From contig JALWTP010000025.1 in NCBI GenBank assembly GCA_027082835.1, positions 1 to 55,020 on the forward strand: a stretch of DNA of 55,020 nt. Reading direction: 5' to 3'. Positions 10,085 through 13,791 of this stretch are shown here, piece after piece. The notes below the pieces were generated by a model, which saw nothing but the letters and a program-made list of their open reading frames with translations, was not told the origin of the DNA and did no database searches. The stretch's first letter is position 1. Each line of letters begins with the position of its first letter. The translations under genes and the position numbers were made by a program. This DNA comes from Candidatus Kaiserbacteria bacterium. Its GTDB lineage: Bacteria > Patescibacteriota > Minisyncoccia > Phycocordibacterales > UBA2100.

Positions 10085-10155
10085 AGCGGGGTGGAGAAGA
10101 AGTATCTCGCGGGGCTCATAACCCCGAGCCATCGGTGCAATTCCGGTCCCCGCAA
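10085..10155 (+). tRNA. tRNA-Met(CAU), initiator-like, with non-canonical D and T loops
   Basis: Hand-folded cloverleaf: AGCGGGG/CCCCGCA acceptor (1:72 A-A mismatch), anticodon arm CGGGG-CTCATAA-CCCCG (three G-C pairs next to the loop), T arm ATCGG-TGCAATT-CCGGT. Confidence 0.6.
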
Positions 10156-10166
10156 CATGTTTAAAG

Positions 10167-10237: not shown

Positions 10238-10919
10238 ATGGTCAAGAGTTCAGAAAAAATACAAGCAAGAATACTTAGAAAACGAGGAATTAGTATAACT
10301 GAAATAGCAAAACAGCTTAATGTTTCGAAAGGGTCCGTAAGTATTTGGTGTAGTGATATTATTCTTTCGGAAAAGCAAAAACGAGTTCTTTATGAAAACA
10401 AAATAAAAGGCGGGTTGATTGGCAGAATGAAAGGTGCAGAAAAAAAACAAACAGAAGCGTCTTGATCAACTGTCAAAATATGAAAAAGAGGGAGAATTAG
10501 AAATTAACGCAATTACAAAAAGAGATCTTCTTATGTTGGGAATTGGTTTATATTGGGGCGAAGGAACAAAAAGTAATTATGGAGGTCCCGCTGTCATTAC
10601 TAATTCTGATCCAAATGTTATTTTACTTGCAATGCGGTGGTTTCAGGAAAACTTTGGTGTTGCGGTAAAAGATTTTAGACCGTATATTTATATTTCTGAG
10701 ATACATAAGGAAAGGGAAGAAGATATAATGAATTTTTGGGTAGGCACTCTAAAAATACCAAAGAAACAATTTTTAAGAATTATTTTTCTAAAAAATCGTC
10801 CTAAGAAAAAATATGAGAATTATGATTCTTATTATGGTATATTATCGTTGCGTGTGCGCCGTAGTACGAACTTGAAATATAAAATATTGGGTTTAATTAA
10901 AGCGTGTGCACCAAAGTAA
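10238..10919 (+). pseudogene. HTH plus single-motif LAGLIDADG-like endonuclease, split into two ORFs (10238-10465, 10434-10919) at an A8 run
   Basis: ORF1 carries an HTH-like ILRKRGISITEIAKQLNVSKGSVSIW. ORF2 carries LGIGLYWGEGTK (LAGLIDADG-like, acidic E). The frames overlap at gcagaaaaaaaac. Confidence 0.55.
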
Positions 10920-10923
10920 ATAT

Positions 10924-10997
10924 GTCGGCGTAGCTCAGTTGGTTAGAGCGAGCGTTTCATACGCGCTAGGTCGGAGGTTCAAATCCTCCCGTCGACA
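10924..10997 (+). tRNA. tRNA with CAU anticodon (elongator Met or Ile2; cannot be decided by eye)
   Basis: GTCGGCG/CGTCGAC acceptor, GCTC-AGTTGGTTA-GAGC D arm, AGCGT-TTCATAC-GCGCT anticodon arm, GGAGG-TTCAAAT-CCTCC T arm. Confidence 0.85.
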
Positions 10998-11226
10998 CAC
11001 ATAACACATAGAACAAAACACGAGCAGTGTTTTGTAATGATGTGGTATTGGCGACGAGAGGATTTGAAAAGAGGTGTCGGTATACAAGACGAACGAAACG
11101 AAGTGGAGTGAGGGCTTGTCGACACCGGCGGGGTCGCGTCGCTTGATATTTTAGAGCGCAAAGCGCGAATAAAATATCTAGCAAAGGTGACCAAATCCTC
11201 CCGTCGACACACATAACACACAGAAC
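10980..11226 (+). repeat. 35-nt direct repeat (10980-11014 and 11192-11226) duplicating the tRNA T-loop to 3' end plus trailer; offset 212 bp
   Basis: caaatcctcccgtcgacacacataacaca[t/c]agaac occurs twice. Confidence 0.9.
11058..11200 (+). ncRNA. Candidate structured element (three-way junction), tRNA-Met-linked copy
   Basis: Anti-T box GAGGATTTGAA 11058-11068; hairpin GGTGTCG/CGACACC 11073-11126; long hairpin 11132-11192; closing partner CAAATCCTC 11192-11200. Homologous to 12218-12340. Confidence 0.4.
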
Positions 11227-11245
11227 CACACACTATTTCTTGAAA

Positions 11246-11274
11246 TAAAAAACGCCCATATGGGCTGTTTTTTA
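11246..11274 (+). terminator. Rho-independent terminator
   Basis: A-run, GCCCATATGGGC palindrome, T-run. Confidence 0.65.
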
Positions 11275-11395
11275 TACTGCGCGAACGAAGGGACTTGAAT
11301 CTTTAATATCTTCGTATAGAAGTTAAGTATATGCTACACATAAAGTTGAGCATATATTGGTTGTAGATTTTGCCTGTCATTGTTATTATATACAT

Positions 11396-12079
11396 ATGAA
11401 AAGTAAAAAGGTGGTGAATAAAGATTTTTTTAAAAACTGGTCAAGTGAAATGGCGTATGTGTTAGGATTTTTTGCTGCCGATGGATATATGTGGGAAAGT
11501 GCACGAGGTGCATATTTTTTTGGTTTTCAGATTAAAGATAAGAATTTGCTGTATAAAATAAGAAAAATATTAAATTCAAACCATAAAATTGCTCAGAGAA
11601 TCAGTAAAAATAGTAATTGGCATGATAGTTATAGATTACAGATTGGTAGCAAGGAAATGTTCAATGATCTCTTAATGCTTGGTATGACTCCTGCAAAGAG
11701 TAAGACACTCACATTTCCTAAAATTCCAAAAGAATATTTGAAAGATTTTATACGAGGTTATTTTGATGGTGATGGAAATGTGTATTTTAAAAAACATTTT
11801 GCAAAAGATAGGGGAAAAGATAGATGGGTCTTTCAAACGCGATTTACATCTGCAAGCAGAAGGTTTCTAAAAGAAATACAAGAAAGATTAAAAAAGAAAT
11901 ATATACAGGGCGGATACATTTACCAAAAACAACGAGGATATGAACTGGTATTCAGTCATCGCGATAGTATTGCTTTATATGAATTAATGTATAATAATAC
12001 TGCAACAAGTTTGTATTTACGGCGCAAAAAAGATATTTTTGAAAAAGCGTTGCGAACTTTGTACCATAAGGGGACGTAG
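11396..12079 (+). CDS. Double-motif LAGLIDADG homing endonuclease
   Basis: Two LAGLIDADG motifs, VLGFFAADGYM and IRGYFDGDGNVY. The stop codon TAG (12077-12079) lies inside tRNA-Asp. Confidence 0.8.
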   Translation: MKSKKVVNKDFFKNWSSEMAYVLGFFAADGYMWESARGAYFFGFQIKDKNLLYKIRKILNSNHKIAQRISKNSNWHDSYRLQIGSKEMFNDLLMLGMTPAKSKTLTFPKIPKEYLKDFIRGYFDGDGNVYFKKHFAKDRGKDRWVFQTRFTSASRRFLKEIQERLKKKYIQGGYIYQKQRGYELVFSHRDSIALYELMYNNTATSLYLRRKKDIFEKALRTLYHKGT

Positions 12080-12142
12080 CTCAGCCGGTAGAGCACTGCC
12101 TTGTCACGGCAGGGGTCGCGGGTTCAAGTCCCGTCGTTCCCG
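12070..12142 (+). tRNA. tRNA-Asp(GUC)
   Basis: GGGGACG/CGTTCCC acceptor, GCTC-AGCCGGTA-GAGC, CTGCC-TTGTCAC-GGCAG, GCGGG-TTCAAGT-CCCGT. Confidence 0.9.
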
Positions 12143-12148
12143 CATTAC

Positions 12149-12176
12149 AAAAAAACAGCCCGTATGGGCGTTTTTT
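12149..12176 (+). terminator. Rho-independent terminator (repeated at 12361-12388)
   Basis: aaaaaaacaGCCCgtatGGGCgtttttt. Confidence 0.65.
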
Positions 12177-12217
12177 GTTGCGGAAACGAAACAACAGTGC
12201 CTGCGCACTGTTGTGGC

Positions 12218-12340
12218 GGGACTTGAAAAGAGCGAGCATATCGGAGGAGGTACGACGACGATGTGAGCGGCGGGGTCGCGTAGCTTAGTATTTTAGAGTG
12301 CGGAGCACGAATAAAATAGTTAGCGAAGGTGACCAAGTCC
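12218..12340 (+). ncRNA. Candidate structured element (three-way junction), tRNA-Asp-linked copy
   Basis: Anti-T box GGGACTTGAA 12218-12227; hairpin CATATCG/CGATGTG 12237-12265; long hairpin 12274-12334; closing partner CAAGTCC 12334-12340. Confidence 0.4.
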
Positions 12341-12483
12341 TTACATTGCTCTCGCATTACAAAAAAACAGCCCGTATGGGCGTTTTTTGTTGCGGAAACG
12401 AAACTACAGTGCCTGCGCACTGTTGTGGCGGGACTTGAAAAGAGCGAACGATACACTTTTCTGCAAGAATTCAAGTGGCACAG

Positions 12484-12515
12484 AACAAATGTATCGATTA
12501 ATCGATACATTTGTT
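12484..12515. terminator. Perfect 15-bp palindrome; likely bidirectional terminator
   Basis: AACAAATGTATCGAT-TA-ATCGATACATTTGTT between the tRNA region (+) and the convergent flavoprotein gene (-). Confidence 0.6.
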
Positions 12516-12528
12516 TTATATCAATCAT

Positions 12529-13791
12529 CTATTTTAATTTTTCAATTATATCCCTCGCGGCGACATGTGCTGTTGTCCAGCAGAGTTGAAGTGAAAATCC
12601 GCCTGAGGGTCGGTTGATATTAAGCAAATCGCCGAGTATATAGAGGTTAGGAACAATTCTAGAAGTCATATTTTTAAAGTCCACCTCTTCCAATTTTACA
12701 CCGCCGTCTGAAAGGACTGCACGATCAAGACCCATAGTTCCAACAATAGGAAAACCAAGTGCCTGCATGGTTTTCACCAATTTTTTCCGCTCGTCTTTGG
12801 TTATGGAATGCACACTCACTTCTCCGAGCGAGAGGTCTGATAGAAATATAACAGTGTGTGCGAGACTCTTGGGAAGGATCTCCGGCAAGACATTACGAAG
12901 TTTCTTGTTTTTATTATTATCAAATAATCTCACTACACGCTTATCTAAATCGTGCTCATTAGTATCTGGAAAGAGATTTATTTCAGCATGTACCGGTCCC
13001 TTTTTAAGGAGCTCACTTACCTCATGCGAAGAATTCAATACCAACGGTCCCGATATACCAAAGTGAGTGAAAAGAATCTTTCCTTTCTTCTTGAGTTTAG
13101 TTTTTCCATTTTGTTTAAATCGCAGTTCCATAAACGAAACCGATGTTCCCGACAGTTTATGCACCCACTTCGCATCTGTTTTAAGAGGAACGACATTTGC
13201 AGATGGTTTTGAAACACTGTGGCCCGCAGTAGAAAGGAACGCGAAGCCATCTCCGGTAGAACCCGTTTCAGGTGCCGCCATTCCTCCTGTTGCCAATACT
13301 ATATATGGCGCTTCATAGACAGTTCCGTTTTTCAAAAGAACCCCTTTGGCAATTCCGTCTTTAAAGAGTACTTTACGCACTGGGGAACTTGTCTGTACAT
13401 TTACTCTATTTTTCTTAAGTTCTTTTCGCAGAACCGCAGTCACATCAGTAGCTTTTTGTGATTTGGGAAAGACTCGGTTGCGCGCTTCGGTAACCAGTGG
13501 AAGTCTGCGACTTTCAAAAAAGGTAAAAGTGTCTTGTGCTGAAAATTGTGAGAAAGGCGAGTGAAGGAATTTTTTTGCCTCAGGGAAGTTGTCCAAAAAC
13601 TTTGCAACTTCAAATGTGGCATTGGTTATGTTGCATCGTCCTCCGCCGGTGATAGAGAGTTTCTTGCCAAGTTCATTATTTTTCTCCAAAAGCACCACCT
13701 TTAGCCCTTTGGATGCAAGAATACCCGCACACATCATACCTGACGCGCCTCCTCCCACTACTATGACATCTGTTTTTTGTACACTACTCAT
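12529..13791 (-). CDS. FAD-dependent oxidoreductase, HI0933/BaiN-like family
   Basis: DVIVVGGGASGMMCAG dinucleotide-binding motif and SITGGGRCNITN signature; 420 aa. Confidence 0.8.
   Translation of the reverse strand: MSSVQKTDVIVVGGGASGMMCAGILASKGLKVVLLEKNNELGKKLSITGGGRCNITNATFEVAKFLDNFPEAKKFLHSPFSQFSAQDTFTFFESRRLPLVTEARNRVFPKSQKATDVTAVLRKELKKNRVNVQTSSPVRKVLFKDGIAKGVLLKNGTVYEAPYIVLATGGMAAPETGSTGDGFAFLSTAGHSVSKPSANVVPLKTDAKWVHKLSGTSVSFMELRFKQNGKTKLKKKGKILFTHFGISGPLVLNSSHEVSELLKKGPVHAEINLFPDTNEHDLDKRVVRLFDNNKNKKLRNVLPEILPKSLAHTVIFLSDLSLGEVSVHSITKDERKKLVKTMQALGFPIVGTMGLDRAVLSDGGVKLEEVDFKNMTSRIVPNLYILGDLLNINRPSGGFSLQLCWTTAHVAARDIIEKLK

Follow-up and report, generated by a model that had tools for sequence, protein, structure and literature searches.

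Small structured cassettes behind tRNA and tmRNA genes of Patescibacteria, candidate protein-free mobile elements that target the T-loop

Background

Genomic islands at tRNA genes (tDNA islands) are defined by an intact gene together with a displaced direct copy of its 3' fragment, and the programs that search for them require an integrase and a length of at least 2 kb (PMC4383910). Under the action of a tyrosine integrase the gene is split in the T-loop, the insert supplies a new 3' end and the old fragment is left as a direct repeat; tmRNA is targeted as well, and tandem arrays carry the newest unit beside the gene. The same layout is seen in the units described here, which lie behind tRNA-Met(CAU) and tRNA-Asp(GUC) on a 55,020-nucleotide (nt) stretch of Candidatus Kaiserbacteria (assembly GCA_027082835.1, contig JALWTP010000025.1, positions 1 to 55,020; this whole stretch is called the window) and recur in other Patescibacteria. 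An intact gene with a displaced direct fragment is present, whereas an integrase on board and a multigene length of at least 2 kb are not, the units being 140-210 nt long without an open reading frame, and they lack an attP block specific for one gene. Unlike the islands, the units add an inverted copy of the target, which makes a hairpin of about 40 base pairs (bp), and one cargo serves many tRNAs where the attP of an island is fixed.

The units are small, protein-free, structured cassettes on the 3' side of tRNA and tmRNA genes in Patescibacteria. One frame recurs on 10 tRNA species and on tmRNA, its stems covary, units stand in arrays, are gained and lost at repeats of the gene's 3' end, and have been retargeted from one gene to another. 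We favour, with moderate confidence, the reading that they are non-autonomous mobile cassettes which target the T-loop and regenerate the tRNA 3' end, by a mechanism that we infer; any single mechanism we would call doubtful. A reading of the window made without database searches (the sequence-only reading) had offered three possible roles, among which a small tRNA-targeting mobile element is now the best favoured, given the arrays, the presence/absence differences between near-identical strains and a cargo decoupled from the tRNA.

Anatomy of the units

Each unit has the order S, t, A, link, cargo, followed by the next S. S repeats the gene from nt 56, within the T-loop, through to the 3' end. 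The GC-rich hairpin t resembles a terminator and is preceded by an A-run and followed by a T-run. A, the antisense box, reverse-complements nt 54-76 and is joined by the link, AAG(A/C)G, to the cargo, a stretch of conserved hairpins 60-215 nt long. Because the unit is placed between nt 55 of the gene and the previous S, it provides the gene with an intact 3' end and a terminator, and the old 3' end is displaced downstream. In every copy ...GGTGAC is followed by the upstream gene's terminal part, C56 to the 3' end, which is identical at 20/20 positions in four loci. A reaches 2 nt beyond S, to nt 54, most clearly in a tRNA-Met copy of a related genome (L005) that has TG at nt 54-55 and a box ending in ...TTGCA. 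It pairs with the displaced gene copy, S2, over 6-18 consecutive bp in 21/21 scorable copies, so the tRNA-specific parts do follow the adjoining tRNA, as had been proposed from the sequence; where S2 has diverged, only the 7-9 bp beside the cargo are retained in the A:S2 helix. Many boxes hold a side hairpin, placed precisely at the boundary between acceptor-strand and T-stem parts. Between t and A we found no promoter-like site, with no sigma-70-like sequence and no room for a separate start.

Several cargo families occupy this frame. Family 1, that of the window, consists of a short-stemmed hairpin (hairpin ii), CGGCGGGG, and a long hairpin (hairpin iii) ending ..TTAGCAAAGGTGAC. Family 2, present in L036, L042, L027 and L028, has a CTTTTG...CAAAAG hairpin followed by GTGTACTGAA-NN-TGTAAG. 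Further cargo types with the same box, link and S occur behind the tRNA-Met genes of L007 and L005, in the distal unit of L015 and in unit 3 of L028. The cargo ends are conserved between families (a purine link on the left, ..TTAG-N3-5-GGNRNN on the right), and across lineages the junction nucleotides CGGCGGGGTCGCGT and the right end AAAGGTGAC are invariant, the base strands of hairpin iii being GGGGTCGCGT and AAAGGTGAC. On sequence grounds the invariant junction and hairpin base point to a specific, as yet putative, protein partner.

CGGCGGGGTCGCG, at the 5' side of the core, is similar to tRNA-Asp nt 38-52, and GCTTGTC in one type of hairpin ii (type A) resembles the Asp anticodon loop, a likeness that may be a trace of cargo ancestry. 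A pseudo-tRNA with a T-loop insertion would leave the copies on other tRNAs unexplained, and a split or permuted tRNA, or a T-loop intron, was rejected because the upstream gene is already complete.

Distribution and searches

All data are metagenomic assemblies. With the conserved part of hairpin iii as the query, a scan of genome collections gave 17 matches, of which 6 are true, all in low-GC Patescibacteria, and the other 11 are chance matches in GC-rich genomes; in metagenome collections all 20 loci found are true. The family amounts to 22 distinct copies from at least 6 Patescibacteria metagenome-assembled genomes and about 20 metagenome contigs, with covariance-model scores of 107-142 bits. 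Their target genes are tRNAs for Met, Asp, Tyr, Arg(GCG), Ser(GGA, TGA, GCU), Glu, Ala and Gly(UCC), and tmRNA. Counted over copies with enough upstream sequence, and with loci L013, L035 and L044 as the exceptions, they sit about 120-160 nt (up to ~230) 3' of the tRNA or tmRNA gene on the same strand. The sequence-only reading had asked whether other tRNA genes carry the module with a box matched to their own T-arm, and 22 copies on 10 tRNA species plus tmRNA answer in the affirmative.

In L035 and L044, tRNA-Ala-type cassette arrays (in L044 with copies at 311-449 and 1061-1199) stand without an intact upstream tRNA, of which only ..AAAGTCCACCA is left; arrays can thus be duplicated or parted from their gene. 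The tmRNA gene, with tag ASKTARGILSPFQMKDFGFAYA (L015, 3107-3497; identical sequence in L043), bears two cassettes. In the distal one (in L015) the tmRNA 3' end is matched perfectly by a 21-nt antisense copy, and the displaced sense copy before it is patched.

Within +/-4 kb of 26 loci no protein recurs, and the neighbours are unrelated housekeeping genes. No coding, autonomous relative of the units was found in the genome, metagenome and viral scans, and three scans of 2.9 million viral contigs gave no true copy (L048 is a chance match inside an open reading frame). The sequence-only reading did not recognise the element as a known RNA family, and Rfam 15, with its hammerhead, twister, retron msr, T-box, tmRNA and tRNA-like families, gives none at gathering or E-value thresholds. 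Only tRNAs reach gathering scores in the window, and relatives give tRNAs and group I introns; an E-value search of 10900-12560 placed RNAI, Clostridiales-1, MIR6224 and EF0408_EF0409 on element sequence at E >= 4, and the matches with lower E (0.13-1.7) fall on tRNA genes or downstream, all far below gathering. Full-text topic and accession searches found no published description of the family.

The two copies in the window

ARAGORN and Rfam together find seven tRNA genes and no other RNA in the window. Behind two of the seven, tRNA-Met at 10924 and tRNA-Asp at 12070, lie W1 (11049-11233) and W2 (12180-12355), two members of one element family that score 129.7 and 110.7 bits with the covariance model. 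Their features, with S1 and A1 for the first S and A and S2 for the displaced S, are as follows.

10924 to 10998, plus strand: tRNA-Met(CAU), target gene of W1 (ARAGORN; Rfam tRNA 68.8 bits).
10980 to 10998: S1(Met), nt 56 to the 3' end; T54 and T55 are 10978-10979.
10980 to 11021, plus strand: first copy of the direct repeat, S1(Met) plus 24 nt of trailer; 93% against 11192-11233.
11013 to 11035, no strand assigned: t1, turn-around palindrome ACAAAACAC-GAGCA-GTGTTTTGT, the tip of the S1-t-A1 hairpin; 10978-11068 forms one hairpin of -41 kcal/mol as RNA.
11049 to 11068, plus strand: A1(Met), antisense box, reverse complement of nt 54-73 (20 nt, 90%; against S2, 18 nt, 89%).
11069 to 11073, plus strand: link AAGAG, the conserved left end of the cargo in W1; a purine link follows the box in all copies.
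11073 to 11126, plus strand: hairpin ii of type A, 7-bp stem GGTGTCG/CGACACC around GTATACAAGACGA...GGGCTTGT; full covariation against L007 and L017.
11126 to 11191, plus strand: junction CGGCGGGG and hairpin iii of W1, right end ...AAAGGTGAC; core repeat and covariance-model match. The hairpin has the base GGTCGC/GTGAC with a conserved G.U pair, the stem GCTTGATATTTTA/TAAAATATCTAGC and the apex GCGC-AAA-GCGC.
11192 to 11233, plus strand: S2(Met) and 24 nt of trailer, the displaced copy of tRNA-Met from nt 56 to its 3' end; the three-way junction is closed by pairing of A1 with the first 9-18 nt of this copy.
11244 to 11300, plus strand: inverted copy of the tRNA-Asp 3' end and terminator (30 nt at 93%, 32 nt at 88%; repeat finder).
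12070 to 12143, plus strand: tRNA-Asp(GUC), target gene of W2 (ARAGORN, Rfam); S1 is 12125-12143.
12144 to 12179, no strand assigned: trailer and t of W2, with A-run, GCCC-GTAT-GGGC hairpin and T-run; tip of a 105-nt S1-t-A1 hairpin of -58.4 kcal/mol.
12180 to 12227, plus strand: A1(Asp), GCGGAAACGAAAC, side hairpin 12191-12214, GGCGGGACTTGAA; the side hairpin is inserted between the acceptor-strand and T-stem parts.
12228 to 12232, plus strand: link AAGAG of W2.
12233 to 12267, plus strand: hairpin ii of type B, CATATCG 12237-12243 with CGATGTG 12259-12265.
12268 to 12333, plus strand: junction CGGCGGGG and hairpin iii of W2, right end ...GAAGGTGAC; core repeat and covariance-model match.
12334 to 12355, plus strand: S2(Asp), diverged, with CAAGTCC, a patch TTACATTGC replacing CGTCGT, and TCTCGC; 8 bp with A1.
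12350 to 12447, plus strand: second trailer-t-A-link copy of W2, 98% against 12138-12235.

Every part of the four-part layout that the sequence-only reading had drawn at both loci (box, short hairpin, long hairpin and duplicated tRNA piece) was found where it had been placed, and both hairpins ii pair as it claimed. The boxes GAGGATTTGAA (11058-11068) and GGGACTTGAA (12218-12227) are indeed reverse complements of the T-loop and T-stem 3' strand of the upstream tRNA-Met and tRNA-Asp, only their extent had been understated: the whole tRNA-Met 3' end, 10978-10997, is reverse-complemented at 11049-11068 (20 nt, 90%; repeat finder), and 12180-12227 is the reverse complement of the tRNA-Asp 3' end, broken by the side hairpin 12191-12214, which is homologous to one in unit 3 of L028. 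The duplicated tRNA piece, likewise present at both loci, is longer than had been described. Both loci carry a direct duplication at about 212 nt, 10980-11021 recurring at 11192-11233 (42 nt, 93%, spacing 212) and 12138-12235 at 12350-12447 (98%). The boundaries first proposed are not supported. The upstream half of the element, in which tRNA 3' end, terminator-like hairpin and box form one hairpin of ~40 bp, had been overlooked, as had the att-like direct duplication of the tRNA 3' end, the arrays and the other cargo families.

Box alignments score 36 (Met) and 26 (Asp) against about 14 +/- 2.6 for shuffles (14.6 +/- 2.7 for the Met shuffles), and no box was found behind the other five tRNAs of the window, whose scores are at shuffle level; a decayed box suspected by eye after the tRNA-Met at 10085-10156 was dropped (score 12, shuffles 12.4). 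The core repeat, 11126-11199 and 12268-12341, has 85% identity (repeat finder), and no further core copy was detected in the window, also by a covariance-model scan.

The W2 patch TTACATTGC, 9 nt at 12340-12348, is complementary, with G.T pairs, to the 3' strand of hairpin ii (12259-12267). Abrupt patch replacements just past the closing helix occur also in L015, L030 and L045; such patches may be template-switch events, or may reflect selection against S1-S2 recombination. Following the second t-A-link of W2, GCGAACGATACAC is tentatively the truncated start of an older type-B cargo, from a comparison by eye with GCGAACAATATCGG of L013. A perfect 32-nt palindrome, AACAAATGTATCGATT/AATCGATACATTTGTT at 12484-12515, lies between the cassette array and the 3' end of an HI0933-like gene (12529-13791, minus strand) and is probably a bidirectional terminator.

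Folding and covariation

The three-way junction formed by A, the cargo hairpins and S2 is the minimum-free-energy structure of W1 (-62.4 kcal/mol, z = -5.4) and the centroid structure of W2 (z = -4.9), and RNAalifold predicts it from the alignment of 18 distinct copies. Held as a fixed structure of 31 pairs on that alignment, it has 93.3% of cells paired, against 33-40% with the partners slid, and 15/31 pairs change on both sides; 0/500 shuffles match the observed values. The conserved, covarying junction that had been proposed from two copies is thereby borne out in 18 homologues. Because both of its arms copy the gene, the closing helix covaries by construction. Independent covariation comes from hairpin ii, in 6/7 pairs, whose 7-bp stem takes four unrelated sequences (GGTGTCG/CGACACC, GCTTCTG/CAGAAGC in L007, GTTACCG/CGGTAAC in L017 and TGCGCTA/TAGCGCA) and whose inner hairpins covary too. 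Hairpin iii is nearly invariant in sequence, with a G.U pair kept in 17/18 copies. An alternative pairing, earlier put forward as a switch or pseudoknot, can be drawn in the window but is at chance level over the 18 copies, where the mean best run is 4.06 nt against 3.73 in shuffles; it stands out in W2 only (9 nt).

A has two possible partners, and where S1 is present it pairs with S1, not S2. S1, t and A1 then form a single hairpin of 85-123 nt with ~40 bp and -41 to -78 kcal/mol, in 17/17 scorable copies. Tallied over 16 distinct hairpins, its pairs comprise 591 Watson-Crick, 28 G.T and 6 A.C, and this excess of G.T over A.C implies that the tRNA-sense strand is the folding strand, whether as RNA or as single-stranded DNA.

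Arrays, gain and loss, and retargeting

Units of different families stand in tandem behind one gene. L027 reads S-A(f2)-S-A(f1)-S-A(f2)-S, with f1 and f2 for families 1 and 2; in L028, tRNA-Ala is followed by four units whose t hairpins are unrelated to one another; and L042 has an intact family-2 unit beside the tRNA with a decayed family-1 unit farther out. Three of the loci closest by homology of a LAGLIDADG endonuclease gene (L003, L005 and L007) are syntenic with the window. In L003, tRNA-Met and tRNA-Asp are followed by a terminator only, the sites being empty, and in L007 tRNA-Asp is followed by a third copy of the element and tRNA-Met by a unit whose cargo is different. Differences are also seen between near-identical sequences: L027 and L033 are identical except for one family-2 unit, absent from L033, that lies exactly between tRNA-Gly nt 55 and the next S, and L032 has, between 20-nt S repeats, a 139-nt unit that is absent from the otherwise identical L036, a difference that looks like deletion of an old unit.

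Assembly breaks are seen at W1 itself. Among Logan contigs (k=31) of run SRR13853571, a second sample, one breaks at window position 11008 and another, L002, has its first base exactly at 11192. A repeat does not account for these two breaks, because S1 and S2 share only 29 exact nt; they lie where branch points would be expected from coexisting alleles with and without W1. The contig that starts at 11192 ends at 12170, exactly 30 nt past the last base that distinguishes the 12141-12192 repeat. That break fits an intragenomic repeat to the base, which validates the branch-point reasoning. The contigs concerned are L047 and L002, and their breaks coincide with cassette repeat boundaries.

Cargo has also moved between genes. 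L026, on tRNA-Glu, and L042, on tRNA-Ser, have cargo that is 95% identical, S that is 44% identical and unrelated t, while two Glu copies are 91% identical to each other; cargo of 89-95% identity is common to Glu, Gly and Ser genes with different S and A. Cargo identity does not follow tRNA identity, and so what passes from one tRNA to another is the link with the cargo, S, t and A being made anew. Units that stay at one tRNA move as wholes, with their t, as in L027, where the family-2 units share an S ending ..GCACA and a homologous t.

A proposed mechanism

Our hypothesis is that the units depend on an enzyme whose gene lies elsewhere. Recombination within S would allow whole units to spread, duplicate and be deleted at a given tRNA, which formally would be integration or excision of a circle of ~140-210 nt. 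In such a circle S could pair with A, giving a rod, with t closing one end and the cargo the other, whose duplex would reproduce the target site in the manner of the folded single-stranded attP of CTX phage or the attC of integrons. The closing helix and the long hairpin would then be one and the same helix, and this would explain why the cargo-proximal part of the helix stays paired.

For a move to a new tRNA, only link and cargo would be transferred, S and A being written from the new target. In a first step the antisense strand would be nicked at 55|56 and the cargo copied onto that end, giving cargo|C56 plus the native S. The top-strand 3' overhang, S with n nt of flank, would next fold back, aided by the palindromic terminator, and fill-in to nt 54 would yield A. 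Synthesis would finally switch to the cargo, leaving S-flank-loop-rc(flank)-A-link-cargo-S-flank (rc, reverse complement). The copied template could be RNA, in a SINE-like target-primed reverse transcription, or single-stranded DNA. This nick, fold-back and switch scheme appears to be the simplest that gives every junction. W1 fits the fold-back product exactly, with a 42-nt duplication of S plus flank, the inverted copy between and a 5-nt loop; L036, with a 57-nt duplication ending inside A, is compatible with it, and the scheme also agrees with the end of A at nt 54, which is kept when nt 54-55 read TG in place of TT (L005). Fold-back copying through t was rejected as the general origin of every unit, since most units share only S, and self-primed extension from S2 was rejected as the origin of the next t-A because the second t-A of W2 is a direct, not an inverted, copy.

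More tentatively, and as something possible rather than probable, we suggest that these protein-free 'T-loop cassettes' are a new class of mobile element whose universal landing site would be G53-T54-T55-C56-R57-A58 of tRNA and tmRNA genes, the gene's 3' end being rebuilt and a fresh antisense copy of the target written at each landing. A candidate enzyme would move them by nick-and-copy (SINE-like) or as a folded single strand (integron- or CTX-like).

Several observations weigh against mobility as we conceive it. No recombinase, reverse transcriptase or transposase is present in the window or recurs near the copies at the 26 loci, and no free circle or circle-junction read was seen. For none of the presence/absence differences is the polarity, insertion or deletion, fixed; the branch points at 11008 and 11192 are indirect evidence; and every sequence used comes, as said above, from metagenomic assembly. 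Only 2/7 window tRNAs bear the element. In most units the match to the next repeat is confined to S and does not extend into the flank, so that the fold-back scheme rests on W1 and L036. Strand-biased C-to-T mutation could explain part of the G.T excess, and the strong conservation of hairpin iii and the junction would also fit an RNA that is useful to the host.

Alternative explanations

That last possibility, a host-useful non-coding RNA, is the alternative that survives best, though we think it unlikely. A, cargo and S would be read through from the tRNA gene and fold in a tRNA-like shape, with an acceptor-like helix from the 5' and 3' ends, a side hairpin, and a long cargo arm between nt 55 and 56, and the RNA would serve the processing or quality control of tRNA 3' ends, divert a T-arm-binding factor as a decoy, or work as a sponge; on this view arrays and polymorphism would reflect gene duplication and loss, not mobility. 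Such a role would account for covarying structure on the tRNA-sense strand with its conserved G.U pairs, for the invariance of CGGCGGGGTCGCGT and AAAGGTGAC across lineages, for the survival of 7-9 bp of A:S2 beside the cargo while the rest of S2 diverges, and for the recurrent side hairpin at the acceptor-strand/T-stem boundary, which gives A a tRNA-like topology. It is difficult to reconcile with a terminator-like hairpin that separates the tRNA from A, where there is neither room nor a sigma-70-like sequence for a promoter, or with A pairing with S1, not S2, when S1 is present. Presence at 2/7 window tRNAs and at none in the close relative L003 would be odd for a housekeeping function, and several unrelated cargo families in the same frame, like near-identical cargo on different tRNAs, speak for mobile cassettes instead.

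Less probable again, we judge, is that the units are scars of integrase-driven islands, left by repeated integration of phages or integrative elements in the T-loop and their later deletion so that attL/attR and a stretch of attP remain (CIME-like remnants), with the conserved cargo as the integrase arm-binding region. Intact tDNA with a displaced direct 3' fragment, tandem arrays and tmRNA as a target make up the classic island signature, and the T-loop is reportedly, after Williams 2002, a known sublocation of integration. No integrase was found in any of about 26 loci, however, and no copy in the 2.9 million viral contigs; unit length is uniform (140-210 nt), where deletion products would be ragged; and an attP is specific for one tRNA, yet cargo of 95% identity is found on Glu, Gly and Ser with re-matched S and A. 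The antisense target copy is foreign to attP, attL and attR, and compensatory changes point to selection on the single-strand structure of the hairpins.

The sequence-only reading had also linked the element to LAGLIDADG enzymes, as their recognition or homing site, and the unit could be seen as part of an endonuclease cassette. Two LAGLIDADG-type genes do abut window tRNAs (10238-10919 and 11396-12079), and an inverted tRNA-Asp 3' end flanks the second. In four related genomes such a gene lies directly upstream of tRNA-Asp (window 11396-12079, L003 6001-6678, L005 6001-6639, L007 2548-3243), its stop codon falling inside the first 10-23 nt of tRNA-Asp in the window, L003 and L005 and 2 nt upstream of it in L007, which suggests a free-standing endonuclease whose putative site is the tRNA-Asp 5' end. 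The gene keeps its place in relatives with the element (L007) and without it (L003, L005), and is therefore a separate resident of the same hot spot; elsewhere copies have no such gene nearby, and neither a homing endonuclease nor any other protein recurs beside them. An accessory role for LAGLIDADG enzymes is thus largely refuted and very improbable. Homologues of the gene number more than 2700, mostly in Patescibacteria and many on very short contigs.

The surroundings hold further elements. The overlapping frames 10238-10465 (helix-turn-helix) and 10434-10919 (GLYWGEGTK, a LAGLIDADG-like motif) end 4 nt before tRNA-Met 10924 and look like one frameshifted gene of helix-turn-helix and LAGLIDADG parts, the second frame having no Pfam match at threshold. 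The LAGLIDADG gene and tRNA-Asp nt 1-55 lie between the arms of a 57-nt inverted repeat, 11244-11300 and 12123-12179 (88-93%), made of the tRNA-Asp 3' end and terminator, whose box...S geometry is like that of the cassettes, although the 'cargo' measures 823 nt and the AAGAG link is missing. In close relatives, tRNA genes are split by group I introns, in the tRNA-Asp anticodon loop (L005 6604-6881, 42 bits) and in the CAU tRNA orthologous to window 10085-10156 (L005 4693-4904, minus strand; L003 5486-5696, about 65 bits); ARAGORN misses these intron-bearing genes, and their counterparts in the window are intron-free. Several kinds of mobile element share this region as a hot spot. The window itself is a piece of Patescibacteria chromosome, with an ENA scaffold 99.99% identical, and its genes include those for type IV pilus, LigA, GatCA, prfB, FtsEX, PyrG, DinB, Nth, MutY, RNase J, PheST and GyrB; phage origin was discarded, as phage matches are of tRNA length only and the genes are bacterial housekeeping genes.

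Finally, a local accident, in which tRNA 3' ends underwent simple inverted or tandem duplication with no copies elsewhere (the case that the earlier reading had named as its own refutation), is suggested by the ~212-nt direct duplications and inverted copies at both window loci and is refuted by the 22 distinct copies, which come from many genomes, share one frame and have stems that covary.

Implications

Patescibacteria have tiny genomes with few recognised transposons, in which mobile cassettes of the kind we favour would be an unseen layer of mobile DNA. Each copy would bear a folded duplex image of its own site, and the smallest bacterial genomes would hold integron-like arrays without coding sequence; landing in a universal site without harm to the gene, with arms re-derived from each new target, would be mechanistically new and might offer a principle for safe-harbour insertion. 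If instead the host-RNA explanation were true, the units would be a new tRNA-linked RNA family in a poorly known phylum. In practice, the units cause false positives for tRNA fragments, break short-read assemblies at tRNA genes, where the break positions can betray a mixed population, and escape island finders that rely on an integrase and a 2-kb length.

Comparison with known systems

Integron cassettes and their attC sites, including clusters without an integrase, resemble the units in being arrays of small units with imperfect hairpins of 60-140 nt, conserved in structure and not in sequence; in both, one strand folds, the units are formally excisable as circles, and the newest lies beside a fixed platform. 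The S-t-A hairpin (85-123 nt) matches in form an attC-type site, an imperfect inverted repeat of about 57-141 nt with a single-strand fold, while the R''/R' core RYYYAAC...GTTRRRY is absent, the hairpin ends reading TTCRA...TYGAA, which is the T-loop. No integron integrase (IntI) was found in the flanks of the copies. Unlike integrons, the platform here is a tRNA gene and not an attI with a promoter, the hairpin arms copy the target gene, and the cassettes have no open reading frame.

Elements of the CTX-phi type come close in another respect: two inverted copies of the target anneal in one strand and rebuild the duplex of the chromosomal site, no recombinase is on board, and the integrated layout is site ... 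inverted site - spacer - site. In CTX, however, the target is dif, the enzyme is XerCD and the element is kilobases long and protein-coding, and for our units a single-stranded circle is only conjectural.

With miniature inverted-repeat transposable elements (MITEs), REPINs and the palindromic elements of IS200/IS605, the units share small size, lack of coding sequence, abundant hairpins, multiple copies and a presumed dependence on an enzyme in trans, as well as conserved ends (AAGAG ... TTAG-N-GGNRNN) around variable insides. They differ in that their inverted repeats copy the adjoining gene and that they are located strictly at tRNA and tmRNA 3' ends. Terminal inverted repeats of their own and a short fixed duplication, which define MITEs, are lacking, the direct repeats being 20-111 nt and variable; the hairpins and constant junction of IS200/IS605 elements and REPINs are present, and so, contrary to those families, are duplications.

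Site-specific non-LTR (long terminal repeat) retrotransposons and short interspersed nuclear elements (SINEs), with their target-primed reverse transcription and twin priming, offer parallels in variable-length target duplications, inverted segments from fold-back priming, a structured RNA tail that a partner enzyme recognises and conserved RNA genes as targets, and the retroviral primer-binding site likewise complements the 3' end of a tRNA. The variable duplications and the fold-back copy of the units fit such an element; those elements, however, are eukaryotic, and the box of the units mostly copies gene plus trailer and not a CCA-ended tRNA, so that the analogy is mechanistic only. A closing helix with hairpins also recalls retrons, but no reverse transcriptase gene lies beside any copy, and a hammerhead-like junction was rejected by inspection, as the strands AAAAGAG / GGCGG / none misfit CUGANGA / GAAA / H and Rfam gave no match. 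Each of the systems compared has a defining feature that the units lack, and no description of the family was found in Rfam 15 or in the literature searched.

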